This document shows positions 4,316-27,607 of a stretch of DNA of 64,000 bases, in pieces. Each line of letters starts with the position of its first letter. Positions within the stretch are counted from its first letter, which is position 1. Source of the DNA: Spirochaetota bacterium (GTDB lineage Bacteria > Spirochaetota > JAGLSM01 > JAKPMW01). Where the stretch lies: assembly GCA_031283155.1 (NCBI GenBank), contig JAITCI010000076.1, forward strand, positions 14,923 to 78,922. Reading direction: 5' to 3'. The position numbers and the translations under genes were made by a program. The notes below the pieces were generated by a model that worked only from the letters and a program-made list of their open reading frames with translations, had not been told where the DNA came from and searched no databases.

Positions 4316-4420
4316 TATTGATCCGCGCACCATACTACAATACGCCGTACCTTGCGGGAACATACTGTCTGCAAAGGTGTAATCTACCGCTGTGTCTGCA
4401 TTTGCGGCACAATGCGATGA

Positions 4421-4624
4421 GTGTGGAGGAAAACCATGAGTTCAAGGTTAATTATTATCGTTGTGTTAATAGCGGCCGCTGCTTTGTTTGTCATCCCGTG
4501 GCTTGATGGCGGAAAGATGGCTTTCGTAAGCGGTAATTTCATTTCTCTTCCGGGCTGGCTTGCCTGTATTATTCTTGTTGCCATTGGATACGCGCTGGCG
4601 CTTTTTATGGGGAAAAAAAGATAA
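4421..4624 (+). CDS. Small 2-TM membrane protein (tentatively DUF1049/LapA-like)
   Basis: SD ggagg precedes the start. Two hydrophobic helices, a basic C-terminus (KKR), and a paralogue of the next ORF. Confidence 0.55.
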   Translation: MWRKTMSSRLIIIVVLIAAAALFVIPWLDGGKMAFVSGNFISLPGWLACIILVAIGYALALFMGKKR

Positions 4625-4651
4625 AAGTAATATTTTGCGAGAGGGGGAACC

Positions 4652-4837
4652 ATGCAAGCAAAAACAGTCATCCTGATTCTGCTGATAGTCTGGGCGGTAT
4701 TTCTTATTATTGCGAATTCAGGACAAACAGGACTGATCTTACTTCCCGGAGTGAGTATATCTATGCCAACATTTATCTTTGGTCTTATTTTCCTGGTCAT
4801 TGGCTATTTTCTGCCCGTGCTTCTCAGGAAAAAATAA
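4652..4837 (+). CDS. Small 2-TM membrane protein, paralogue of the preceding ORF
   Basis: SD gaggggg. Same architecture (TM, short loop, TM, RKK tail). Confidence 0.55.
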   Translation: MQAKTVILILLIVWAVFLIIANSGQTGLILLPGVSISMPTFIFGLIFLVIGYFLPVLLRKK

Positions 4838-4870
4838 AAAGCCCATGTTTACTTGATTGGCAAGAGGCAT

Positions 4871-5692
4871 ATGAGTGTAATCTCAGGGAAGCTCGGTTAC
4901 CGGGCTTCCCTGTTTTGGATCACGTTTGCGGTTTTTGTGTTTTTTTTCGCCCTGCTTATGCAGGGAATGCCGATTCCGGCGATACAGATCTTTTTTTTAG
5001 TTATGGCGGTATGCGGCGCGTATCTTGCCCCGTTTCCGGCGGAGAGGTATGCAGCCGGGCGCGAGGCCATGTTTGCGCGCTTATCGCTCAGGCGGCTGCC
5101 TGTTTCGGATTGCCTGCTGATCGCGCTTGCGGCTCTGCTTCTTCTGCCCGCATTAACCATGCTTTTTGAACAGGGTATGCGGCTTATTCCCGGGTATCCT
5201 GACTACGCGCGCAATGCGGAAGCGGTCTTCCGGCGCGGTCTCGCCGAACAAGGCGTATGTACGCTTTTTTGTTCTTTGGCGGCGCTGTCGGCGATCTGCG
5301 AGGAATTCTTTTTTCGCGGGCTTTTTGCGTCAGGCTTGCGCGAGACAGGGCTTTCGCGTCCGGTGCGCATATTTTCAGGCGCGCTTTTTTTCGCGATCAT
5401 GCACCTTGATCCCTGGCGGCTCCTCCCGATGTGTACACTCGGCATGATTATGATGTGGCTGGTTGAACGAAGCGGGAGTATATGGGCACCGGTTATTTAT
5501 CATTGTACGAATAACGCTTCGGTTTTGGGGCTTTCACTTTTGCGCAGTACTCAGGCTGCGTCAGCGGATTCCGCCGAGGTTCAGGATTTCTTCCTGACCG
5601 GAAGTCCTGCTCCTGTATCGGTACTGTTCGCGCTTATTCCGGCGGTATTTGGGTTGTACGCGCTCCGGCGGTCAAAAGAGCGAAAATACTGA
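4871..5692 (+). CDS. CPBP-family (CAAX/Abi-type) intramembrane metalloprotease
   Basis: CPBP signature motifs EEFFFRG (EExxxR), FAIMH (FxxxH) and HCTNN (HxxxN), with multiple TM helices. SD agagg precedes the ATG at 4871. Confidence 0.75.
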   Translation: MSVISGKLGYRASLFWITFAVFVFFFALLMQGMPIPAIQIFFLVMAVCGAYLAPFPAERYAAGREAMFARLSLRRLPVSDCLLIALAALLLLPALTMLFEQGMRLIPGYPDYARNAEAVFRRGLAEQGVCTLFCSLAALSAICEEFFFRGLFASGLRETGLSRPVRIFSGALFFAIMHLDPWRLLPMCTLGMIMMWLVERSGSIWAPVIYHCTNNASVLGLSLLRSTQAASADSAEVQDFFLTGSPAPVSVLFALIPAVFGLYALRRSKERKY

Positions 5693-6782: not shown

Positions 6783-9230
6783 ATGTCCGTGTCCGAGTAC
6801 GATTTTTCCGCTATCGAAAAAAAATGGCAGAACTATTGGGAAGCAAATAAGACCTTTCGGATGCGGGAAGATCCCGCCATTCCGAAAGAGCGGCGATTCT
6901 ATTGCCTCGATATGTTTCCCTATCCGTCGAGCGCCGGGCTGCACATAGGGCATCCCGAGGGCTATACCGCAACCGACATTATCTGCCGCTATAAGCGTAT
7001 GCGGGGATATGCCGTGCTGCATCCCATGGGCTGGGATTCCTTTGGGCTGCCCGCTGAAAATTATGCCATCAAAACAGGCACACACCCGCGAACCACCACC
7101 CTCGCCAATATTGAGGGCTTTCGCAGGCAGATCAAGGCGCTCGGTTTTTCGTATGACTGGGATCGCGAGGCGAGTACCTGCGACCCGGACTATTTTCGCT
7201 GGACGCAATGGATATTTTTGCAGCTCTATAACGCGGGGCTTGCCTACCAGGCGATTGTGCCGATCAATTTCTGCCCTTCGTGCCGCACCGGACTCGCGAA
7301 CGAAGAGGTGAAGGACGGGCGATGCGAGCGCTGCCATACCGAGGTCGTGCGTAAGGACATGAAACAGTGGATGCTCCGGATCACCGCCTACGCCGACCGC
7401 CTGCTTTCTGATTTAGATCTCCTGGACTGGCCGGAGCCGATAAAGCTAATGCAGCGCAACTGGATTGGCCGCTCGGTCGGGGCCGAGGTGGATTTTGCCA
7501 TCCCGGGCAGAAGCGAGGTGCTCACGGTTTTCACGACCCGCCCCGACACGCTCTTTGGCGCGACCTATATGTGCCTCTCGCCCGAGCATCCCCTTTTGGA
7601 CGCCCTCGCCACGGAGGAACAGCGGGCGGCGGTGACGGCGTATGTGGAAGCCGCAAAAAACAAGAGCGATTTGGATCGTACCGATCTCGCGAAAGAAAAA
7701 ACGGGCGTATTTTTGGGCAGCTACGCGATCAACCCCGTCAATAACGCGCGCATCCCTATCTGGGTCGCGGATTACGTACTCATCTCGTATGGAACCGGCG
7801 CGATCATGGCTGTTCCGGCGCACGACGAACGCGACTTTGAATTTGCGCAAAAGTTTTCGCTCCCGATTATCGAGGTGGTCAGCGCCGACGGCAAAACGCA
7901 TGGCATACCCAAAGAGGCGCTCACGCCGGACGGGTACGCGGTCAATTCCGGCGAGTTTGACGGGCTCTCCACTTCGGAGTGCAAGCAAAAGATCACCGCC
8001 CGCCTCGCGTCGATGGGCAAGGGCAAAGAGGCGGTGCATTATAAGCTCCGCGACTGGGTGTTCTCGCGGCAGCGCTATTGGGGCGAACCCATCCCGCTGG
8101 TGCATTGCGAGCGCTGCGGCACGGTCGCCTTACCGGAGAGCGCGCTCCCCCTCACGCTGCCCGAGGTGGAAGCCTATACCCCGAGCGGCACAGGGGAATC
8201 TCCGCTCGCGGCGATGCGCGACTGGGTTGCGGCCGTTTGCCCTCAGTGCGGCGGGTCTGCCCGGCGCGAAACCGACACCATGCCCCAATGGGCGGGTTCC
8301 TGCTGGTACTACATCCGGTTCCTCGACGCGCATAATACCGCGGTATTCGCTTCGCCGGAGAGGATTGCGTACTGGCTGCCCGTGGATCTCTATATCGGCG
8401 GGGCGGAACACGCGGTGCTGCACCTGCTCTACGCGCGGTTCTGGCATAAGTTCCTTTTCGACAAGGGATTTGTGCAGAGCCCAGAGCCCTTCATGCGGCT
8501 TGTGAATCAGGGGCTCATCATGGGCGAGGACGGGCAAAAGATGTCCAAGTCGCTCGGGAATGTGGTCAACCCCGACGAGGTGATCGCGCAGCACGGCGCC
8601 GACACCCTGCGCCTTTATGAAATGTTTCTGGGGCCGCTCGAAATGTCCAAGCCCTGGAATATGAGCGGCATCATGGGTGTGCGCCGTTTTCTGGAGCGCG
8701 CGCTCAGGTTGTTCGATAAGCCGATTGCCGATGGCGCGGCACACGGGAATGTGGAAGAACCCGAGGATCACGCGCGATTGCGGCACAGGACGATTCGGAA
8801 GGTTACGGAAGATATCGAGAATCTCAGTTTCAATACCGCGATCAGCGCGTTGATGGTTTTTGTCACCGAGCTGACCAGGCGCGATACGTTTATGCGCGCC
8901 GATGCCGAGGCGCTTGCCCTCCTGCTCTCGCCGTTTGCGCCGCATCTCGGCGAGGAACTCTGGGCGCTCGCGGGGCACGATACAACGCTCGCTTACGAGA
9001 AATGGCCTGAGTTCAACCCGGCGCTGACGGTTCAGGATACCGTGGAAGTGGTGTTCCAGGTGAACGGCAAGGTGCGCGATAAGGCGCTCTTTGCGCGCAA
9101 TTCCGAAGCAGCCATTCTCGAGGCCGCCGCGCGCAGAAGCGAACGGGTTGCGCCCTGGATCGCGGGCAGGGAAATCGTGAAAATAATCTGCGTACCGGAC
9201 AAACTCGTGAATATTGTGGTAAGAGGCTAG
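6783..9230 (+). CDS. leuS: Leucyl-tRNA synthetase
   Basis: HIGH-type HPEG motif, KMSKS (QKMSKSLGN) and 815 aa. Unmistakable class I LeuS. Confidence 0.97.
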
Positions 9231-9300
9231 AACAGGAGGTTCTGTCCCGCGCGAAGCGTGCAAGGCAAGCGCGTACAAGGATGTACGCTTTTGCGAAGGG
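9226..9300. repeat. Intergenic repeat element, copy 1 (GCTAGAACAGGAGGTTYTG.CCCGCGCGAAGCGTRCAAGG.AAGCGCGTACAAGG)
   Basis: About 55 nt and near-identical to 23343-23397. Internal direct repeat GCGTRCAAGG x2. Confidence 0.5.
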
Positions 9301-9568
9301 GAAGAACAGGAGCCGCGAAAAAGACAAAAGTATTTGGCCACGAAATTCACGAAAAAAGGCTCGAATAAAACCCTAAAAAGACAAAAACAAATGACTGGGG
9401 TAAATACAACAACAAAAAAGCAAAACAATGATTGGGGTGAATACAAAACCAAAATACGGCTCTCCCGCCTTGGTCTTGGCTTTTAACCTCGAACTCTTTT
9501 TAAGTCTTTATTCGATCTTTTATTCGCGTGATTTGTGGCAAAAAAATTTTTTTTGTTTTTCACGGCTC

Positions 9569-14035: not shown

Positions 14036-14400
14036 GTCGTCTCGCGGCGGCAGGGGATCGCGGCAGGATAATTTCGCCGAGGAAAGTCCGGACTCCAGGG
14101 AACAAGAGTACGCCGGGTAATACCCGGGCGGGTACGTGTACCCGACGGAAAGCGCAACAGAAAGCAAACCGCCTTATTTCTCCCTAAGAAATGGGTAAGG
14201 GTGAAAGGGTGGGGTAAGAGCCCACCGCGGTTTTGGCAACAAAACCGGCACGGCAAGCCCCGTATGGAGCAAGTTCAAGCAGTGAACCGGGTTCCCGAAT
14301 GGTTCACGGGTAGAGCGCAATCAGCGTTTGGGGAAACCCGGCGCGCAGACAGATGATCCCCCCAGACAGAATCCGGCTTATAGTCTCCGCGAGACGACGC
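14036..14400 (+). ncRNA. rnpB: RNase P RNA, bacterial type A
   Basis: GAGGAAAGTCCGGACTCC (P4 5' strand), GGGTAAGGGTGAAAGGGTGGGGTAAGAGCCCACC and ACAGAATCCGGCTTATAG (P4 3' strand). The P1 helix GTCGTCTCGCGG (14036-47) pairs with CCGCGAGACGAC (14387-98). Confidence 0.92.
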
Positions 14401-14952
14401 TTATACCCGCGCGCTCTGAAAAGCGATGCTGATGGAAAATGGACCGAATTCTGTTTTGAGCGTTAAAACAATGGTTCTGAGTTCCGGATGGATAAGCTCA
14501 ATGCCCTGTCCCAGATAGAACACAGGCGCGGAGATGCCGCAGTGGATCCCGTTTTCCGCAAGCAGAGTCACCGCGTGCGCGGCGATCTGGTTGCCGAGTT
14601 CAAGCAGGGCGGAGTGGAGAAGCTGGCGAAAATTCGCCGCATCGAGCATACCGGGATCAAGCTGCTTCTCGATCATGGCCCGCGAGAGGCGCACCGCCAC
14701 CCCTTTTGAAAATTCATAGACAATTTTTCCCTCAAGCTGCCCGTGAACGTCCAGGGTCAGCCCCATGCCCGCAGGCGTAAACTTTCCCTGCTGCACCGTA
14801 ACCGTATCCTTCGCTATCGAAAGCCCGGTATTGGCGCGCACGATTTTGACGGCGGATACAATAAAGGGGTTTATGGCGCGCGCGCTTGTACTCAAATGAG
14901 TATCGCGGGCAGCAGGCGCATTTGAGCCGGATTTTTGCATGGCGGTTTCCAT
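14401..14952 (-). CDS. CheC/CheX-like chemotaxis phosphatase paralogue
   Basis: INPFIVSAVKIV and ELGNQIAAHAVTLLAENG fit the CheC/CheX ExxN family. The stop codon abuts the 3' end of rnpB. Start chosen at the first internal Met and remains uncertain. Confidence 0.55.
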   Translation of the reverse strand: METAMQKSGSNAPAARDTHLSTSARAINPFIVSAVKIVRANTGLSIAKDTVTVQQGKFTPAGMGLTLDVHGQLEGKIVYEFSKGVAVRLSRAMIEKQLDPGMLDAANFRQLLHSALLELGNQIAAHAVTLLAENGIHCGISAPVFYLGQGIELIHPELRTIVLTLKTEFGPFSISIAFQSARV

Positions 14953-15080
14953 CGCGGAGTGCTCAGTGCTTCTATACTGGTTTATCGGCAAAAATCCGCT
15001 TCGCAAGAAGCTGTTCTTTTGGACTCTGGACGGGGGCAGCGTATATTTGCGGGTATATCGCGCGTTCGGAGAATGAAAAA

Positions 15081-16364
15081 ATGTCAATGCGGATAGAGCT
15101 TGCGGGGCAGGAAAAAATTCATGCGTACCGAAAGAGCGCCTTCGCGAGCGGACGGCTCCCGCCCGCGATTTTGCTTGTGGGTGCGCCTGTCTCCGGCAAG
15201 GCGAGTCTTGCCCTGGAATTCGCGAAGCAGCACCTCTGCGAATGTGGTACGCAATTCCCCGATGAACCGCCCCTCGCTCCCTGCGGCGAATGTTTTGCCT
15301 GCCGCGAAACCGCGAAGCTCAGGTATCCCGATTTTATAATGTTTTCCGCGCGCGAATTGGCACCGGCCTGCCGCGCCCTGGAAGCGATCATGGGGAGCGC
15401 GCGCGTCCGGCCGCTTCTGTTTGAGACGGAATTTCTCGCGCGGCGCGTTGTGCAGCATCTCCGCAGCGGTTTTTTCAAACTGAAGGACGTTTCCGCGAAA
15501 GAGGCGGAGAGCATTGGCGAAAAGATCGCGGCTCTGGAAACACTTACCCCTGATATCGCCCCCGAATCGCTTACGCTCGCCGACGAAGAAAATATCCGCG
15601 AGCGTCTGGCCGAGGCGATAAACACCATATCGGAACTGGACGCGCTCTCGCAGCACGCCGTTTTGCCTATCGCCGGGATTCAGGAGATAATCCGGCTTCT
15701 TGCGCGGCGGCCGCTTTTGGGGCATCGACGGGTTGTATTCATTGAAGAGATCGAAAAATTCCGGTCGGAGGGCGCGAACGCCTTTTTGAAAACCCTTGAA
15801 GAACCGCCGCCCGATACCCTTATTCTGATGACCGCTTCCAATATTGAGGCTGTGCTGCCCACTATCCGGTCGCGCTCCGCGATCCTTCCCGTTACGCATT
15901 TTACAAAGGCGGATATTCGCAGTATCGCCTTTACATATTACGGCCTGCCGGAGGAGGACGAACCGCTCGGATATACCGGGCGCGATCTCTACGCATATCT
16001 CGAATCGGCGGGCGATACCGCGCGCATCCTGCGAAACGATTTGCAGCGGTTTTTGGATCTGATCCAAACAGCGGATCGTGATCCCGCCTGCTTTGAGTTT
16101 GCGCATGACATGGACAAGCGCAAGGCCGCGCCCGCTTTTTTGTTTGCGCTCTCCGAACGCATAGCGGAGACGATCACCGCGCGGGCTCTCGATCAAAAAA
16201 ACGCCCAGTCTGATCTTTTGGCGCATTACCGCGGGATTTTTCTGCGGCGTATGCTCCGCGAGATACGCACCCTCGCGCGCGGCATACGAAAAAATAATTT
16301 CTCCGCCGCTCAGGGAATAATCGCCATCATGCAGGCTTTCTGGCTGGAGGGCGCGATGCCGTAA
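15081..16364 (+). CDS. holB: DNA polymerase III delta-prime subunit
   Basis: AILLVGAPVSGKASLA (degenerate Walker A), a Cys cluster (CECG..CGEC..C), and ANAFLKTLEEPPPDTLILM...LPTIRSRS, the classic delta-prime motifs. SD ggaga. Confidence 0.85.
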   Translation: MSMRIELAGQEKIHAYRKSAFASGRLPPAILLVGAPVSGKASLALEFAKQHLCECGTQFPDEPPLAPCGECFACRETAKLRYPDFIMFSARELAPACRALEAIMGSARVRPLLFETEFLARRVVQHLRSGFFKLKDVSAKEAESIGEKIAALETLTPDIAPESLTLADEENIRERLAEAINTISELDALSQHAVLPIAGIQEIIRLLARRPLLGHRRVVFIEEIEKFRSEGANAFLKTLEEPPPDTLILMTASNIEAVLPTIRSRSAILPVTHFTKADIRSIAFTYYGLPEEDEPLGYTGRDLYAYLESAGDTARILRNDLQRFLDLIQTADRDPACFEFAHDMDKRKAAPAFLFALSERIAETITARALDQKNAQSDLLAHYRGIFLRRMLREIRTLARGIRKNNFSAAQGIIAIMQAFWLEGAMP

Positions 16365-16551
16365 TTTTTGCGCTATGGCGGAATTTTCTTTTTTTGGGGA
16401 GCAGCAGCGACATCCTGTCGCTGCCAAAAAAATTTGCTCTTGCATAGAAAAATTTGTGCGGTACGGAGCAGTGTGTTATAATGATACACTGGTTAGGATC
16501 GCCTGCTCGGATTTGCCGATGGGCGTTTCGGGATACATAAGGAATGGTATC

Positions 16552-17901
16552 ATGCCTCCCAGGCTCTTAATTCTGGACGATGAACAGACCGTTCGCTCCA
16601 AGGCGGGGGATTTTTTCCGCGCGGACGGCTATGCGGTCAATCTGGCCGAAACTGCGGATGAGGGGCTGCGCATTCTGCACGGCGGAGAGATCGATCTCAT
16701 TGTCGTTGATTTGAGCCCCGGCAAAAGCGGTCAGAATATGATCGACGAGATACTCCGCGATTACAGCGGCATACCGATCATCATTCTGGCCGATCCGCAG
16801 TGCGTGGAAGACGCGATTGCCTGTATGCGCAAGGGTGCCTACGAGTACCGCGCGAAGCCGGTTGATCTGAAGGAACTCGCGCTTCTTGTGCAGCGCGCGC
16901 TTTCGGTGCGCGCCCTCGAAAAGGAAAATGCGAGCCTGCACATTCAGCTTCAGGATCGTTTTGGTCTGACCAATATTATCGGGCGAAGTCCCGAGATGGA
17001 GCATATTTTTGACAAGGTGCGGACAGTCGCGCCCACCAAGGCGAATGTACTTATCACGGGCGAATCCGGAACCGGCAAGGAACTTATCGCAAACGCGATC
17101 CATCTGCTGTCGGAGCGCGCGCGCTTTCCGTTTGTGAAGGTGCATTGCTCCGCGCTTGCCTCCGGTGTGCTGGAGAGTGAACTCTTCGGACACGAGAAGG
17201 GGGCGTTTACCGGCGCGAGCCGGCTGCATCGCGGGCGCTTTGAGCTGGCGAATCGCGGGACCATTTTTCTCGATGAAATTGGTGATATTGACGCTTCATT
17301 GCAGGTAAAGCTCCTGCGCGTACTCCAGGAGCGATCCTTTGAGCGCGTAGGCGGGGAGGAAACCATATCGGTCGATGTTCGTCTGGTGACGGCGACCAAC
17401 CGGGATCTCTTTCAGATGGTCGAAAAAGGGCTCTTTCGCGACGATCTGTACTATCGCCTTAACGTAGTGCTTATCCATACGCCGCCATTGCGGGAGCGCA
17501 AGGGGGACATTCCGCTGCTCGTGAATTCCTTTTTGCGCGAGTATTGCCGTGAAAACGGCATGATCGAAAAAAAGATCGATCAGCGCACCATGGCTGCGCT
17601 GGAGCAATACAGGTGGTCGGGCAATGTGCGGGAGATGAAAAACCTGGTGGAGAATCTTGTTGTGATGAGCAAGGGGCCGATAATTCAATATTCCGACCTC
17701 CCGGATTATATTCGCGAGGAAAAAAAGTCCGATACGATTGTGCTGGCCGCCGGAAAAACCCTGGATGAGTACGAGCGCGAATTGATCCTCGCCACGCTGC
17801 ATTGGACGGGCGGCAATAAGTCCCGCGCGGCCTCGGTACTCGGGATTGGGCGCAAAACGCTCCACCGAAAGCTCGAAGAATACGGGCAAACTGTATCATA
17901 A
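16552..17901 (+). CDS. Sigma-54-dependent response regulator (NtrC-family bEBP: REC + AAA+ sigma54 activation + Fis-type HTH)
   Basis: REC domain (LILDDE..D..), Walker A GESGTGKE, a GAFTGA motif (KGAFTGAS) and a C-terminal HTH. SD aaggaa before the ATG at 16552. Confidence 0.92.
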   Translation: MPPRLLILDDEQTVRSKAGDFFRADGYAVNLAETADEGLRILHGGEIDLIVVDLSPGKSGQNMIDEILRDYSGIPIIILADPQCVEDAIACMRKGAYEYRAKPVDLKELALLVQRALSVRALEKENASLHIQLQDRFGLTNIIGRSPEMEHIFDKVRTVAPTKANVLITGESGTGKELIANAIHLLSERARFPFVKVHCSALASGVLESELFGHEKGAFTGASRLHRGRFELANRGTIFLDEIGDIDASLQVKLLRVLQERSFERVGGEETISVDVRLVTATNRDLFQMVEKGLFRDDLYYRLNVVLIHTPPLRERKGDIPLLVNSFLREYCRENGMIEKKIDQRTMAALEQYRWSGNVREMKNLVENLVVMSKGPIIQYSDLPDYIREEKKSDTIVLAAGKTLDEYERELILATLHWTGGNKSRAASVLGIGRKTLHRKLEEYGQTVS

Positions 17902-20866: not shown

Positions 20867-21063
20867 CACCAATCAGGAACAAAGCGGTTGGATAGTCCGC
20901 TTTGCACGGTAAAAAAGACCTGATGACGACCGCCGATCAAAGGGAGGGAAATCAGCGCCCGCCGTTATATTGAGTATCGTCGGCTCGTTTTGGAAACTTG
21001 AGAGTCCTTCGCGCATTTATTTTTGTTAGTTTTGCAGAGCTTAAGCCAAAAGAGGACAGAATA

Positions 21064-21858
21064 ATGCGCATAACAGACTTTCACACCCACGCCTTCTCCG
21101 GCAAGGTATATGAGCGCGCAATGGAAAGGCTCACCGAGGGTTCGGGCATTCCGCCCTTTCATAACGGATCGCTCGCGGGGCTCCTTGCCTCAATGGACGC
21201 GGCGGGGATCAGCCGCTCCGTGATGCTCTCCATTGCCACGAAACCAGAGCAATTCGACGTTATACGCGCGTGGTGCCGCGAGGCGGCCAGCGAGCGCATC
21301 GTACCCTTCGCTTCGGTTATGCCCCAGCACGAGAGCGCCGCGCGCGGGGTGCGGCAGATCGCCGCCGATGGAATATTGGGTATTAAGATTCATCCCTGCT
21401 ATCAGGGCTTTGTGCTGGACGCGCCCGAATTGGATCCCTTTTACGGCGCGGTGGCGGATACGGGGCTCATTTTGCTTGCGCATACCGGCTACGACATCGC
21501 CTATCCCGCGCGGGAGCAGAATGCCACGCCCGAACGTACCGCGCGCGTTTTTGAGCGCTTTCCGGGCATACGCATGATCGCGGCGCATTTTGGCGGCTGG
21601 GAGGACTGGGAGGACGTGAAGCGCCACCTCCTGGGACGTCCCGTTTGGCTGGAGACATCATTTCTTGTGTGCCGCCGCGACGCCGAATATTCGCGCGAAA
21701 TGTTTCTCTCGCACGATCCTGATTATCTCCTCTTTGGGACGGATTCGCCCTGGGTGGGACAAAAGGAGGAACTTGCGCGGCTCCGCACCCTCGGGCTTCC
21801 CGACGAACTTATGACCAAACTGCTGGATACGAATGCCGCGCGGTTATTGGGACGGTGA
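21064..21858 (+). CDS. TIM-barrel metal-dependent amidohydrolase family protein
   Basis: N-terminal DFHTH metal-binding motif, about 265 aa. SD agagga before the ATG at 21064. Confidence 0.75.
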   Translation: MRITDFHTHAFSGKVYERAMERLTEGSGIPPFHNGSLAGLLASMDAAGISRSVMLSIATKPEQFDVIRAWCREAASERIVPFASVMPQHESAARGVRQIAADGILGIKIHPCYQGFVLDAPELDPFYGAVADTGLILLAHTGYDIAYPAREQNATPERTARVFERFPGIRMIAAHFGGWEDWEDVKRHLLGRPVWLETSFLVCRRDAEYSREMFLSHDPDYLLFGTDSPWVGQKEELARLRTLGLPDELMTKLLDTNAARLLGR

Positions 21859-22069
21859 CAAAGCGGGGTCGCGGAAGGTCAGCGGCGCTGGGCTGCGCCC
21901 GCCGGGTACACTGAGGATGTGTGCGCCCCGCAACACGGCGAAGTGTCCTGTGGGTAATGTTGCGTTTTTGGGCTGCGAGTTGACAGGACGTCAGCGCGCG
22001 GTAGGATAAGGAAAAATATTGATGTGGAGTTTGTCAAAAGGACAAACAAAAACAGAAGGAGATAATGCC

Positions 22070-22900
22070 ATGAAAGTGCCTCAATACCTTGAACTGTTTA
22101 ATCCCGTGTTGCTGGCTTTACACGCTTTAGGTGGAAGCGGCTCAGTTGAAGAGATATATAGCAAGGTTATTGAACAGCAAAATTATTCTGCTGATGTTGT
22201 AAATGCTACTCGAGGGAACAGGCAAACGGCTCTGGAATACAATCTTGCATGGGCAAGAACATATCTGAAAAACTATGGACTCATAGAAAATACCGCCAGA
22301 GGAATTTGGAGTATTGCGAGTGGAAAACTTGGTATTACAGAAGTAGACGCAAAAGCAGTCGTAAATTATGTCCTATCGATGCCGAAAAAAATAAAAGATA
22401 GTTCTGCTGAGGATATTCCTATTAATGAAAGTATAAAGTGGCAGGAAGAATTATTGGAAATTTTACTAAGCATATCGCCGGAAGCCTTTGAGCGGCTCAC
22501 GCAAAGAATATTGCGCGAATCGGGTTTTTCACAAGTAGAGGTGACGGGCAAAACTGGCGATGGCGGAATAGACGGGAGAGGACTATTTAAGGTAGCAAAG
22601 CTCATTAGTTTTAGGGTGTTTTTCCAATGTAAGAGATGGCAGAAATCGGTGTCAGCCAGCGATATACGTGATTTTCGTGGGGCTTTGCAGGGAAGAGCCG
22701 ACAAAGGGTTATTTGTCACAACAGGGAATTTCACACGAGATGCAATGAAGGAGGCTTCCCGCGATGGTGCTCCGCCGATAGATCTGATCGATGGCGAGAT
22801 GCTGACAGACATAATCAAAGAGCTGAATCTCGGGTTACTTATCGAGATAGAACAAGTCGAAAAAATTACAATAAATAAAAATTGGTTTTTGCAAATATAA
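22070..22900 (+). CDS. mrr: Mrr-family type IV (modification-dependent) restriction endonuclease
   Basis: Mrr_N winged-helix N-terminus, and a Mrr_cat core with GDGGIDG ... QCKRW ... LFVTTGNFT. Strong SD aaggaga. Confidence 0.85.
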   Translation: MKVPQYLELFNPVLLALHALGGSGSVEEIYSKVIEQQNYSADVVNATRGNRQTALEYNLAWARTYLKNYGLIENTARGIWSIASGKLGITEVDAKAVVNYVLSMPKKIKDSSAEDIPINESIKWQEELLEILLSISPEAFERLTQRILRESGFSQVEVTGKTGDGGIDGRGLFKVAKLISFRVFFQCKRWQKSVSASDIRDFRGALQGRADKGLFVTTGNFTRDAMKEASRDGAPPIDLIDGEMLTDIIKELNLGLLIEIEQVEKITINKNWFLQI

Positions 22901-22928
22901 AGGAAATTGTAATTCAGGAGGAATCATT

Positions 22929-23282
22929 ATGAGCATCGCGAATATGTTTGAAGAGAAATCAAAGGGGATTGAATACGCGCCGCACAAGAAATTCAAAGGG
23001 GTATATCTGAAACACCTTGTCACAGGCGCAATGACGGATAACCGGATAAGCTGCCATTTGGTTAAGGTTGATCCGTTTTGTGTGCTTGAAGCGCATACTC
23101 ATCCCGAGCAGATTGAGATTCATGAGGTCATCGATGGCGATGGCGTTTGCACAATCGCGGATAAAAAATTGCAGTATACGCCCGGAGTTGTTGAAGCTGT
23201 TCCGCAGGGCGTTACGCACGAGGTAGTAGCGGGAAAAGACGGCATATATATTCTGGCGAAATTTGTCCCTGCGCTTCTCTAG
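22929..23282 (+). CDS. Small cupin-domain protein
   Basis: HTHPEQIEIHEV ... GVTHEV has the cupin His/Glu pattern. SD aggagg. Same AT-rich composition as mrr. Confidence 0.7.
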   Translation: MSIANMFEEKSKGIEYAPHKKFKGVYLKHLVTGAMTDNRISCHLVKVDPFCVLEAHTHPEQIEIHEVIDGDGVCTIADKKLQYTPGVVEAVPQGVTHEVVAGKDGIYILAKFVPALL

Positions 23283-23342
23283 CCCGAGCTGCTTCCGAAG
23301 TAGGAGTACGTATTTCGGAACGGATGTCGCAAGCAAGCGCTG

Positions 23343-23425
23343 GGCTAGAACAGGAGGTTTTGACCCGCGCGAAGCGTACAAGGTAAGCGCGTACAAGGCG
23401 AAGTACCCGTAGGGTAAAATACGCT
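23343..23425. repeat. Intergenic repeat element, copy 2 (near-identical to 9226-9282) plus a related 3' segment
   Basis: GGCTAGAACAGGAGGTTTTGACCCGCGCGAAGCGTACAAGGTAAGCGCGTACAAGG compared with the copy after leuS. Confidence 0.5.
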
Positions 23426-23739
23426 CTTTCCCTCGCTTTTGGCCATCCTTGGCCGCAAGGGACGCTCCCATCCAGGTCGCAGGCGAGGGCTAACACACCT
23501 TTGCTGTGCCGCAGCAGGGCATAGGATGGCGAAAGCGCTGTATTACCCCGAAGGGCGAAATTTCCGTGTCCCAGAGCTGCGGTTAAGCGCGCTACCCCGC
23601 GCCGGTCGCAACATCCTGTTGCGCGCGGGGCGCAAACATCGTGTTTGCGGCGGCTGAACAAAATTCGTTATAAACAGCCGCAGCAATCACTCTGTATGCG
23701 TTCCATGTTCCCAAAAAAATATACAACTGCGTTATACTT

Positions 23740-24273
23740 TTACCCGCGATCAAAGAACGGACTCTTGCCGCTGGCCGAGAGCGGGATCGCGTAGGCCACT
23801 TTGATTTCGGGCGTAAAGAAGCCGCACTGTATCGCGGCAATGGCGGCAGAATACATGATGCGATTATCTACGCGCAGATCCGCCGCGATGCTGACCGCCG
23901 AACCCACCGCGATACCGAGATCGCTGATCGCGAAAACGCACACCCCGCCGGGTCCCTGTCCGAGGCTCTCGCAATTTGGGTAGCCGCAGAGCGAGCATAA
24001 TTTGAGTTTGCGCGGGCGTGTGCCTGTGCCAATCAGGAGTACCACGGGCGCTGCGCGGACGTTTTCGCTGTCGCGCGTAAATCCGGCCAGCCCCCTGCTC
24101 TGCCCAATCTGCGCCATGGTATCGGCAAGGCGCGTTTTCTCGTCTCCGGTTACGATCAGGATCTCGAGCTGATCGTCGCCGCGTCCTTTCGGCGCGGTGC
24201 GGGCGGCCTGCGCCATTTGCTTTGCCGCGCACACAAGACTCTCTTCGCGGATTGCGGTTTCATTTGTCAGCAT
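23740..24273 (-). CDS. Hypothetical Cys-motif protein (CSLCGYPNC; possibly DUF2148/ferredoxin-like)
   Basis: 177-aa ORF with a conserved-looking Cys cluster. The family name is tentative. Confidence 0.55.
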   Translation of the reverse strand: MLTNETAIREESLVCAAKQMAQAARTAPKGRGDDQLEILIVTGDEKTRLADTMAQIGQSRGLAGFTRDSENVRAAPVVLLIGTGTRPRKLKLCSLCGYPNCESLGQGPGGVCVFAISDLGIAVGSAVSIAADLRVDNRIMYSAAIAAIQCGFFTPEIKVAYAIPLSASGKSPFFDRG

Positions 24274-24391
24274 ATTTCACCTCGCTTAAGTAATGATCTC
24301 CCTGCTCTCTGTATACCTGCTTGTCTCCCGCCGCGCGCGTACCTAAATTTTCGCGGAGGCATCATATAAATATAGATAAAGGCAACAGAGT

Positions 24392-27300
24392 ATGTTCAAG
24401 CCGGTTCCGTCCGACGTTTCGTTTCCCAAACTCGAAGAAGAGATACTCGCTTTTTGGCGGGAGCGTCAGACCTTTGAGAAATCCCTCGCCCTGCGCGCGG
24501 GATCACCCCCGAGCTCATCGCCATCCGTGGCGGCTCGGGGCGCGAACCTCCTGTTCGCAGGAGAATACGTCTTTTACGACGGCCCGCCCTTTGCCACGGG
24601 GCTGCCGCACTACGGGCATCTCTTGCCGGGCACGGTAAAGGATATCATTCCGCGGTATCAAACCATGAAGGGGCGCTACGTTCCGCGCCGCTTTGGCTGG
24701 GATACGCACGGGCTTCCCGTTGAAAACGAGATCGAGAAAAAGCTGAACCTGCATACCAAACGCGACATCGAAAATTACGGTATCGCGCGGTTTAATGAGG
24801 AATGTCAGAGCATCGTGCTGCGCTATGTGCGGGAGTGGGAAAAAACGGTGGAGCGTTCGGGGCGCTGGGTGGATTTCAAAAACGCCTACCGCACCATGGA
24901 ACTCGGGTATATGGAAAGCATCCTCTGGGTTTTCCGCCAGCTCTGGGACAAGGGGCTGATCTACCGCGGATTCAAGATTCTCCCGTACTGCCCGCGCTGC
25001 GCGACGCCGCTCTCCAATTTTGAGACGAACCAGGGGTATCGCGAGGTCGCGGATCCCGCGATCACCGTGCGCTTTGCGCTGCAGGATGAGGACGCGAGCA
25101 TCCTTGCCTGGACAACCACGCCCTGGACGCTGCCCTCCAATATGGGGCTTGCGGTGGGCGAGGTGATTACCTACGCGCTGGTCGAGGATGCGGATGGCCG
25201 CTTTATCCTGGCGCGCGACCGCCTCGCGGCATATTACAAGAGCGAAACGCAGTACAAGGTTGTGCGCGAATTTCAGGGGGCGGAACTTGTGGGGCGCGAA
25301 TATGTTCCGCTGTTCCCGTACTTCGCCGACAAAAAGAGCGAGGGCGCGTTTCGCGTGATCGCGGGTGATTTTGTGAGTACGGAGGACGGCACGGGTATTG
25401 TCCATATCGCGCCAGGCTTCGGCGAGGACGACGCGCGCGTGGGGCTTGCCTTTGGGATTCCGGCGGTATGCCCGATGGACGACGAGGGGCGGTTTACCTC
25501 CGAGGTAGTGGACTACGCGGGCGTGTTTGTGAAGGACGCCGACCGTGCGATCATCCAGCGCCTCAAAAAAGAGCGCAAGCTGATTAAGCAGGATCAATAC
25601 ACCCATAATTATCCGCATTGCTGGCGCTGCGATTCGCCGCTGTTGTACCGCGCCGTTTCGAGCTGGTTTGTGTCCATCGAAAAAATCAAGGCCGATATGC
25701 TAGCCGCGAATGAGCGCGTTGTATGGATACCGGCGCATTTAAAGCACGGGCGTTTTGGCAAGTGGCTGGAGGGTGCGCGCGACTGGGCGATCTCGCGAAA
25801 CCGCTACTGGGGTTCTCCGATTCCGGTTTGGGTTTGCGAACGCGCGGAGTGCGGGCATAGCGTTTGCGTCGGCTCCATTGAGGAGCTGGAGCGTTTTTCC
25901 GGACAGAAAGTGACGAACCTGCATAAGCATCACGTGGACGCCCTTGCCTGGAAATGTCCGCAATGCGGCGCGGTGATGCGGCGTACCCCCGAGGTGCTGG
26001 ACTGCTGGTTTGAGTCCGGGGCAATGCCCTACGCGCAGGCGCACTATCCCTTCGAGAACAAGGAGCGCTTCGAGGCAACCTTCCCCGCGGATTTTATCGC
26101 CGAATCCCTGGATCAGACGCGCGGCTGGTTTTATACCCTGATCGTGCTCGCGGCGGCGCTCTTTAAGGATACCGCTTTCAAAAATGTGGTGGTCACGGGG
26201 CTCGTACTCGCGGAGGACGGGCAGAAGATGTCGAAGCATCTGCGCAATTATCCCGAGGTATCCGAGATACTCAACGATTTCGGCGCGGACGCATTGCGCC
26301 TCTATCTTATGAATTCCGCCCTTGTGAAGGCGGAGGAACTCAAATTCTCGGCGGGCGGCGTAAAGGAGATCCTGCGCGCCTTTCATCTGCCGTTATGGAA
26401 TTCGTACAGCTTTTTTGCCACCTACGCGATTGTGGACAACTGGGATCCGGAGCGCGACGCCATTCCGCTCTCCGCCGTTACGCATCCCCTGGATCGCTGG
26501 ATACTCTCCGCCGTGCAGCGCCTGACGATGGATATGGACGCCTCCCTGGAGGCCTACGATCTCCAGCGCGCGATTCCGCCCATGCTCTCGTTTTTGGACG
26601 CGCTCACCAACTGGTATATCCGGAGATCGCGTCGGCGCTTTTGGCGTTCTGCTTCCGATGATGCAAGCGCGCAGGGTTTGGACGACGAGAAGAAGGGCGC
26701 GTACACCACGCTGTATCATGTACTGACGCGCTTTGCCCAGATAGCGGCACCGATTACGCCCTTCATCAGCGAAGCGATATGGCAGGGCTTACGCGCGGGC
26801 GATATGCCCGAGAGCGTGCATCTGTGCGATTACCCGGGCGCGATTGCGGAACTGCGCGCTCCCGATCTTGAGGCGGAGATGGCGCTTGCGATGCGCACGG
26901 TATCGATGGGGCGCGCGCTCCGGAGCCAGCGCAAGATTAAGGTGCGTCAGCCGCTCGCGGCGATTCATCTGGTGACGAGCGACGCGAATGAGCGCGCTAT
27001 CCTCGCGCGGCTTGAGGATATACTCTGCGAAGAGCTGAACGTAAAGCGTGTGATCTTCGGCGAGCGCGAGGAGGAACTTGTTACGCTTTCGGCGAAGGCG
27101 AATTTCAAGACTCTCGGTGCGCGCCTCGGCAAGGATATGAAGCGCGCGGCGGGGCTGATCGAAAAGATGGGCAGCGCCGAACTCGCCGAACTGCGTGCGC
27201 GGGGGAGCTTCCGGCTTACCGACAGCGATCTCTGCATTGCCATCGGAGTTGACGACGTGCTGGTTCACCGCAGCGAAAGGGAGGGGCTCGTTGTGATGAA

Positions 27301-27607
27301 CGAGGGCACCCTGACCATCGCCCTGGACAGCACCCAGAGCGAAGAGCTGGAGCTGGAGGGGCTCGCGCGCGATTTGGTGCATCAGATACAGATCATACGC
27401 AAGGAGAGCGGATTCGCGATCACCGACCGGATCCGCGTATACTACGCCGGGGATGAGCGGGTCTCCGCCGCTTTTGAGCGTTTTGGTGCGTATATTAAGA
27501 GCGAGGTTTTGGCGTTGGATATGCAGCTTGGCGCGAACTCCGGCGAAACGTACTCCTTTGACGGGGTGGATGCGTGTCTGGCGGTAGAGCGGGCGGACAA
27601 TAAATGA
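24392..27607 (+). CDS. ileS: Isoleucyl-tRNA synthetase
   Basis: HYGH (HIGH-type) motif, KMSKH(L), 1071 aa, and clear IleS homology throughout. Confidence 0.97.
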   Translation: MFKPVPSDVSFPKLEEEILAFWRERQTFEKSLALRAGSPPSSSPSVAARGANLLFAGEYVFYDGPPFATGLPHYGHLLPGTVKDIIPRYQTMKGRYVPRRFGWDTHGLPVENEIEKKLNLHTKRDIENYGIARFNEECQSIVLRYVREWEKTVERSGRWVDFKNAYRTMELGYMESILWVFRQLWDKGLIYRGFKILPYCPRCATPLSNFETNQGYREVADPAITVRFALQDEDASILAWTTTPWTLPSNMGLAVGEVITYALVEDADGRFILARDRLAAYYKSETQYKVVREFQGAELVGREYVPLFPYFADKKSEGAFRVIAGDFVSTEDGTGIVHIAPGFGEDDARVGLAFGIPAVCPMDDEGRFTSEVVDYAGVFVKDADRAIIQRLKKERKLIKQDQYTHNYPHCWRCDSPLLYRAVSSWFVSIEKIKADMLAANERVVWIPAHLKHGRFGKWLEGARDWAISRNRYWGSPIPVWVCERAECGHSVCVGSIEELERFSGQKVTNLHKHHVDALAWKCPQCGAVMRRTPEVLDCWFESGAMPYAQAHYPFENKERFEATFPADFIAESLDQTRGWFYTLIVLAAALFKDTAFKNVVVTGLVLAEDGQKMSKHLRNYPEVSEILNDFGADALRLYLMNSALVKAEELKFSAGGVKEILRAFHLPLWNSYSFFATYAIVDNWDPERDAIPLSAVTHPLDRWILSAVQRLTMDMDASLEAYDLQRAIPPMLSFLDALTNWYIRRSRRRFWRSASDDASAQGLDDEKKGAYTTLYHVLTRFAQIAAPITPFISEAIWQGLRAGDMPESVHLCDYPGAIAELRAPDLEAEMALAMRTVSMGRALRSQRKIKVRQPLAAIHLVTSDANERAILARLEDILCEELNVKRVIFGEREEELVTLSAKANFKTLGARLGKDMKRAAGLIEKMGSAELAELRARGSFRLTDSDLCIAIGVDDVLVHRSEREGLVVMNEGTLTIALDSTQSEELELEGLARDLVHQIQIIRKESGFAITDRIRVYYAGDERVSAAFERFGAYIKSEVLALDMQLGANSGETYSFDGVDACLAVERADNK

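Follow-up and report, generated by a model that had tools for sequence, protein, structure and literature searches.

A solitary, AT-rich Mrr-family gene in a small variable site between conserved genes of a Spirochaetota bacterium

The locus described here lies in a 64-kb stretch of DNA (64,000 nucleotides (nt), hereafter the window) from contig JAITCI010000076.1 of a Spirochaetota metagenome-assembled genome (MAG; GCA_031283155.1). Between a conserved amidohydrolase gene of the Amidohydro_2 family and a conserved, convergent gene for a DUF2148 protein, beyond which ileS (24392-27607) follows in divergent orientation, there is a core-to-core gap of 1881 nt (21859-23739) that holds two open reading frames (ORFs) on the + strand (Table 1). 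The first encodes an Mrr-family restriction endonuclease (hereafter Mrr) and the second a small cupin. The two genes are separated by 28 nt, and each has an AGGAG-type Shine-Dalgarno sequence 7-8 nt before its ATG, in line with the strong signals reported for both by an earlier reading made from the letters alone (hereafter the sequence-only reading). The NCBI annotation of the MAG lists the products as a restriction endonuclease (MDR2734897.1), a cupin (MDR2734898.1) and a DUF2148 protein (MDR2734899.1). In a Logan short-read assembly, made independently from this sample, contig L001 matches positions 20900-23394 at 99.96% identity and recovers the junctions, which rules out an assembly chimera.

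The Mrr protein matched two Pfam models well above their cut-offs: Mrr_N (PF14338; 2e-14, 53.9 bits versus a cut-off of 29.5, residues 6-83) and Mrr_cat (PF04471; 1e-30, 106.7 bits versus a cut-off of 21, residues 133-248). It was also matched by the PADLOC model mREase_IV for type IV methyl-directed restriction endonucleases (2.4e-25). The alignment with EcoKMrr covers the full length of the protein including the N-terminus (26% identity, E = 3e-20), and the GDGGID motif (D164/D168) together with Q186-C-K188 is invariant in Mrr, EcoKMrr and six homologues. The catalytic core can in addition be aligned with GDGGVD...QAK of the MspJI nuclease domain (PDB 4F0P), over residues 141-249 only. Pfam, PADLOC and the EcoKMrr alignment agree with the sequence-only reading, which had proposed an Mrr-family endonuclease with an Mrr_N domain and a catalytic GDGGIDG..QCKR signature.

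Enzymes of the EcoKMrr/MspJI type cut DNA with methylated bases and require no cognate methyltransferase. By homology, foreign DNA with methylated bases would be bound by the winged-helix domain of Mrr and then cut by its D...QxK nuclease domain, again with no need for a cognate methyltransferase. The scanned ORFs, up to about 10 kb to either side, contain no methyltransferase domain, making Mrr a solitary gene whose neighbors are the amidohydrolase, the cupin, DUF2148 and ileS. A candidate sigma-70-like promoter (21980-22007, + strand; TTGACA-16 nt-TAGGAT, 10 of 12 consensus matches) lies where the sequence passes from GC-rich to AT-rich and, judged by this match to the consensus, may serve Mrr.

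The base composition sets Mrr apart from its surroundings. GC content falls from 0.60-0.63 (21100-21999) to 0.35-0.49 across 22000-23099, and the bin 22001-23000, with a GC content of 0.411, is the lowest among the 64 one-kb bins of the window. The span of Mrr and cupin together has a GC content of 0.432 versus 0.548 +/- 0.032 for segments of the same size elsewhere (z = -3.6). Mrr itself has a GC content of 0.42 and a third-codon-position GC content (GC3) of 0.38 versus 0.64-0.74 in host genes, and no other ORF of the window departs as far in synonymous codon usage (z about -3.6). The cupin lies in between (GC 0.476, GC3 0.51), with a codon log-likelihood of -1.07 that falls inside the host range. 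The drop from about 62% to about 40% GC that the sequence-only reading had described over 22000-23290 is therefore real, and the predicted deviation in GC and codon usage was found, with Mrr as the strongest outlier in 64 kb; the drop belongs mainly to Mrr, however, and not to the cupin.

Mrr belongs to a distinct subfamily of ~279 amino acids (aa) that is abundant in metagenomes. Its closest homologues are 65-68% identical and mostly metagenomic, with one from a Spirochaetales MAG. These close homologues are still more AT-rich (GC3 0.13-0.16), even in a host of 50% GC, so the Mrr of the window looks partly ameliorated. Mrr came from an AT-rich gene pool and is horizontally acquired. Carriage by a plasmid or phage was considered and rejected, as plasmid homologues reach 41-46% identity at most and no homologues were found in phages.

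The cupin has a different history. Its Pfam match to Cupin_2 is just over the gathering score (29.6 bits versus a cut-off of 27.2), cupins in the PDB match it at about 1e-4, and its metal ligands (H56, H58, E63, and H97) are invariant in a family alignment of eight homologues. At the DNA level, it is 83.3% identical to the cupin gene of a related contig (L099), for which the two core flanks give 87.2% and 85.9%. Because its divergence tracks that of the core flanks, its codon usage is host-like and it is present in relatives without Mrr, the cupin is an older resident of the site, probably acquired early, vertically inherited since and largely ameliorated. Cupin homologues with 62-64% identity come from Candidatus Methanoplasma termitum and a Sporomusaceae MAG; these organism names hint at exchange within a shared, possibly termite-gut, community.

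Seven related contigs were reached through homologues of the amidohydrolase and the cupin, and their amidohydrolase orthologues share 76-92% aa identity with that of the window (L003-L008 and L099). The relatives come from JGI datasets 3300005200, 3300005201, 3300042610, 3300038395 and 3300073944, from ENA ERZ27257339 and from SRR10402454. Two of them carry an empty site: in L003 (80% aa identity) and L006 (81%) the DUF2148 gene adjoins the amidohydrolase gene directly, with stop codons 64 nt and 7 nt apart, respectively. L099 (amidohydrolase 87% identical at the DNA level) has 65 nt, the cupin and then 9 nt between the cupin and DUF2148 stop codons, with no equivalent of the right spacer. L004 (89% aa) has 117 nt followed by the cupin, after which the contig ends. 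L005 (Logan SRR10402454; 92% aa) has an unrelated spacer of 156 nt, a 46-nt remnant of the Mrr 3' end, the cupin, a RelB/YafQ cassette and the 3' end of DUF2148. L007 and L008 (78% and 76% aa) have other unrelated sequence after the amidohydrolase. Including the window, the site thus shows at least five states. The DNA inserted relative to the empty sites is the entire core-to-core gap, which exceeds the AT-rich part.

The remnant in L005 corresponds to window positions 22855-22900 and encodes VEKITIDKNWFEKI followed by a stop codon, the conserved C-terminus of the subfamily. Mrr therefore stood upstream of the cupin before the lineages of the window and L005 parted, and sister lineages are losing it. 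The empty sites in L003 and L006, and the absence of Mrr from the relatives, are what the sequence-only reading had expected of an acquired segment. Scans that approached the site from either flank returned distant sequences only: homologues of DUF2148 in metagenomes at 43-54% identity, from unrelated lineages, and homologues of the amidohydrolase in genomes at 41-49%, from Desulfobulbaceae and Verrucomicrobiota.

Domain scans of the ORFs within about +/-10 kb of the locus revealed no mobility genes, no integrase or transposase was found nearby, and the 64-kb window contains no tRNA gene. Of the usual features of a classical genomic island, atypical composition and absence from relatives are seen for Mrr, and the codon usage of the cupin is not atypical; an integrase or transposase, a tRNA target and significant flanking direct repeats were not found at the locus. 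The features of a core-flanked defence hotspot are present, with Mrr in the window, RelB/YafQ in L005 and the same conserved flanks.

We consider it likely, and hold with good confidence, that the Amidohydro_2/DUF2148 gap is a small hypervariable, core-flanked defence hotspot in which three layers can be told apart: an early cupin, a separate solitary Mrr module and a non-coding spacer. The cupin, common to several relatives, would have been acquired early. The Mrr module (about 21859-22927), bringing its own promoter-like site and Shine-Dalgarno sequence, would have been placed upstream of the cupin and partly or wholly deleted again in sister lineages. The third layer would be the 457-nt right spacer, with its genome repeat and its terminator-like hairpins; it is a third independent difference between the sites, separate from Mrr and from the cupin. 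For gain and loss, the most likely route would be the uptake of DNA followed by recombination across the conserved flanks, together with illegitimate insertion and deletion; such a route leaves no mobile-element scar. What stood of the horizontally acquired islet proposed by the sequence-only reading is the foreign Mrr and the variable site without mobility genes; the unity of Mrr and cupin and their mobilization by repeats did not.

Several points weigh against this account. A near-identical donor of Mrr was not found, and the restriction activity and methyl-dependence of Mrr are predictions from homology. The relatives are short metagenome contigs that were compared by pairwise identities alone, and the pairwise data fit both orders of events, in which Mrr was either gained once and then lost or passed between lineages. 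The suggested route of transfer is deduced from the absence of scars. The right spacer, finally, may itself represent a mobile element of small size.

Table 1. Features of the locus in window coordinates.
Feature	Coordinates	Strand	Description
Amidohydro_2 gene, left core flank	21061-21858	+	TIM-barrel metal hydrolase; Pfam PF04909, 1.4e-31; host-like, GC3 0.70
Left spacer	21859-21975	+	GC 0.66; without counterpart in any relative
Mrr-family type IV restriction endonuclease gene	22070-22900	+	276 aa; Mrr_N winged helix, linker, PD-(D/E)xK-type Mrr_cat
Cupin gene	22929-23282	+	117 aa, single domain; Pfam Cupin_2, PF07883
Right spacer	23283-23739		Non-coding, 457 nt, GC 0.56; no Rfam family
56-nt repeat	23343-23398	+	93% identical to 9225-9280, E = 2.7e-17
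Inverted-repeat-bounded segment	23349-23620		23-nt arms 23349-23371 and 23598-23620, 19 of 23 positions complementary
Two strong GC-rich hairpins	23595-23700		-53.1 kcal/mol; z = -5.55 (+ strand), z = -3.5 (- strand)
DUF2148 ferredoxin-domain gene, right core flank	23740-24273	-	Pfam PF09918, 1.7e-28

The closest known systems resemble the locus in some respects and differ in others. EcoKMrr of E. coli K-12 (b4351) has the same architecture along its full length, with an Mrr_N winged helix, a linker and a C-terminal Mrr_cat domain carrying GDGGID...Q-x-K. Both proteins are encoded by solitary genes without a cognate methyltransferase, in a variable region beside conserved genes, which in K-12 places mrr next to hsdR. 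The two differ in sequence (26% identity) and in length, the Mrr of the window having 276 rather than 304 aa through a shorter linker. MspJI recognises DNA via an SRA-like domain. The Mrr of the window shares with the MspJI family an alignable catalytic domain with the D...QxK core, whereas its recognition domain is Mrr_N, and the match is limited to the catalytic part.

With respect to the site, the nearest parallels are the core defence hotspots cDHS1 and cDHS2 of Pseudomonas aeruginosa, where variable, low-GC content lies between constant core genes with no obvious mobile element and where homologous recombination through the flanks was proposed as a scar-free route of transfer (Johnson et al. 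2023, PMC10250203). The locus studied here likewise has constant core flanks, variable low-GC content and no marks of a mobile element. Unlike them, it measures 0-1.9 kb compared with a median of 26 kb, comes from an uncultured lineage with little sampling, and has a single defence gene alongside a cupin that is not a defence gene; only about eight alleles are known. In the integration hotspots of E. coli, prophages, integrative and conjugative elements, transposons or satellites that can be recognised as such carry the cargo in nearly every case (Hochhauser et al. 2023, PMC10121019). Defence genes at recurrent core-flanked positions with rapid gain and loss are common to those hotspots and to the present locus, at which, by contrast, no recognisable mobile element is detectable.

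Besides the hotspot, we weighed several other explanations. One holds that the right spacer, from about 23343 to 23625, is a non-autonomous element resembling a miniature inverted-repeat transposable element (MITE), with many genomic copies, and that it drives rearrangement at the site. The inverted-repeat arms of the segment are imperfect, and 6 of 1000 shuffles were as good; the 296-nt segment 23337-23632 folds with its ends paired (z = -2.3). The left arm is made up by the first 23 nt of the 56-nt repeat and recurs at the 3' end of leuS (ORF 6783-9230), in whose last two codons the other copy of the repeat begins; the sequence-only reading had correctly seen that the right flank holds the repeat found after leuS. 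In the short-read assembly of the sample, L001 ends exactly at 23394 and L002 starts at 23625; this interruption fits multi-copy DNA, and the spacer is absent from L099 and L005. Against this, the window holds just one full and one partial copy and no target-site duplication was seen. The 56-nt repeat had no match outside the window in GTDB representative genomes, JGI metagenome contigs or IMG/VR, and no sequence of either spacer or of the repeat occurs in the contigs of the relatives, empty sites included. The inverted repeat could also be a part of the terminator hairpins, and even if the spacer is mobile, the resident cupin separates it from Mrr. We regard a MITE that drives the site as unlikely, although the segment 23349-23620 is possibly a MITE-like or structured module.

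The hairpins at the right end of this spacer are probably the terminators of the convergent DUF2148 and cupin transcripts. On the left, a hairpin formed by CGCAACA...TGTTGCG and followed by TTTTT (about 21925-21970; fold energy unexceptional, z = -0.8) is probably the terminator of the amidohydrolase gene. A 15-mer common to the right spacer and to the terminator region of a sigma-factor gene (E = 0.023) was put down to chance or to generic hairpin sequence. No Rfam family was found in 21800-24400, even at E <= 1. Beyond the other copy of the 56-nt repeat, the A-rich region downstream of leuS (9280-9470) contains two tandem-like copies of TGAYTGGGGTRAATACAA, and a GGGTAAAATAC-like motif of that region is also present in the right spacer (23410-23421).

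Two further elements were noted upstream and downstream of the cupin in the relatives. The RelB/YafQ toxin-antitoxin cassette of L005 (L005:1920-2666; 693 nt, GC 0.44) begins directly after the cupin stop codon, and on both sides of it stand the same 27 nt from the 3' end of the cupin gene (GCGAAATTTGTTCCGGCGCTTCTCTAA), a perfect direct duplication. The sister contig L099, which is 93% identical, has at 871-915 the uninterrupted junction of cupin, 9 nt and DUF2148. The duplication is long for transposition and resembles the footprint of an att core; no recombinase was found on the L005 contig. L005 (1395-1480) and L004 (3046-3110) have in common a palindromic element of ~60 nt upstream of the cupin (AATAATAA...TTATC-N6/7-GATAA), which is absent from the window and L099; an operator is one possibility, a small mobile or structured element another. 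At the other end of the site, L005 (2727-2808, compared with L099:1412-1609) loses its similarity to the window ~50 nt into the 3' end of DUF2148, and no gene was called there; L099 has kept the full DUF2148 gene. DUF2148 may be disrupted in L005, or a further rearrangement may have taken place there.

A second explanation is that very small cassettes with promoters of their own are placed in the gap precisely at the ends of genes, either by an unrecognised trans-acting recombinase or by a mechanism guided by hairpins or repeats. The cassettes would be Mrr, RelB/YafQ and the 272-nt module bounded by the inverted repeat, and the 27-bp duplication in L005 would be the footprint. If true, this would amount to a miniature cassette exchange distinct from integrons and from classical islands; we consider it quite unlikely.

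It has also to be asked whether Mrr and the cupin work together as a defence system of two genes, in which the cupin would act as a sensor, a modifier or an antitoxin-like partner. Their common strand and short intergenic distance would suit such a system, and so would the L005 remnant, which dates their adjacency to before the split of the window and L005 lineages. The cupin is found alone in L099 and L004, however, and homologues of it are listed widely without any Mrr annotation. In none of three contigs with close Mrr homologues (65-67% identity; L009, L010, and L011) is there a cupin beside Mrr; the neighbors are an MmeI-like restriction-modification gene and an antitoxin in L009 and L010 and nothing notable in L011. 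The cupin has no match in PADLOC, and neither codon usage nor GC3 agrees between the two genes. A joint system is thus very improbable.

The sequence-only reading had taken Mrr and cupin for one compact islet, bounded by related ~28-bp sequences and inserted at, or mobilized with, this repeat. Sequences of this kind do lie in direct orientation at 21937 and 23397, there is no integrase nearby, and L003 and L006 show the site empty. Their similarity, however, is at the level of chance: the best local alignment of the pair scored 23 versus 18.8 +/- 2.3 for dinucleotide shuffles, 35 of 500 of which scored at least as high. No further copy of the motif exists in the 64-kb window. The left sequence (21937-21964) sits inside the terminator-like hairpin behind the amidohydrolase gene, and the right one (23397-23424) starts at the 3' edge of the 56-nt repeat, within the right spacer, which is missing from L099 and L005. 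The contigs of the relatives contain neither flank sequence, and the single copy that was expected at an empty site is missing from both L003 and L006. The presence of the cupin without Mrr in L099 and L004, and its divergence in step with the core flanks, likewise speak against a single unit. We found no evidence for short-repeat mobilization of Mrr or the cupin, and the ~28-bp islet model is largely refuted; we leave it hardly any weight. A 16-nt inverted match (21916-21931 and 23625-23640; 4 of 500 shuffles) was tried as the terminal inverted repeats of an entire islet and rejected because the intervening cupin is older and neither L099 nor L005 has the right spacer.

An integron-like cassette array without integrase (CALIN), in which Mrr, the cupin and the toxin-antitoxin pair would be cassettes bounded by attC sites, would account for small genes whose content varies among relatives and for a toxin-antitoxin cassette at the same site in L005, but we give it next to no credence, as the gaps of 28 nt (Mrr-cupin) and 9 nt (cupin-DUF2148 in L099) are too short for attC (judged by length, without a dedicated attC model), Mrr comes with a promoter-like site of its own, the insertion in L005 is flanked by the duplicated cupin 3' end and not by attC-like imperfect palindromes, and no integron integrase was found in 64 kb.

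As a small core-flanked defence hotspot, the locus is an ordinary one: its Mrr is a further member of the Mrr family, and the hotspot is of a known kind. Mildly unusual are the possibly MITE-like right spacer and the L005 toxin-antitoxin cassette with its 27-bp target duplication. In a little-sampled lineage of Spirochaetota, the locus provides a well-supported example of a lone type IV restriction gene that comes and goes within a very small core-flanked hotspot and leaves no mobile-element scar. It agrees with the picture obtained for the Pseudomonas core defence hotspots and has little consequence beyond annotation. The allele series of empty site, cupin only, remnant and full site may offer a natural case study of the gain, amelioration and decay of a defence gene. 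A more practical lesson is that what the eye takes for short "repeats" flanking an AT-rich gene may prove to be terminator hairpins and unrelated repeats in a spacer.

Some observations were made away from the gap. The Mrr-free contig L003 (1210-4762) has, between a DNA_pol3_delta2 gene and a sigma-54 activator gene, an extra gene for a D12-class (N6-adenine) methyltransferase of 714 aa and an HD_5 gene. The Mrr-bearing genome lacks both at that place (compared over about 14886-17901 of the window and L001:439-3259). In this one pair of genomes, Mrr could be incompatible with L003-type methylation.

The only Rfam family detected in the window is the bacterial class A RNase P RNA (14042-14396, + strand, 254.8 bits). 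In codon usage, an ORF of 138 aa at 4384-4800 (- strand; GC 0.44, GC3 0.45) ranks second only to Mrr as an outlier of the window (log-likelihood -1.42). It has no Pfam match, adjoins a CAAX-protease-like gene (4853-5692) and may be another small foreign gene.

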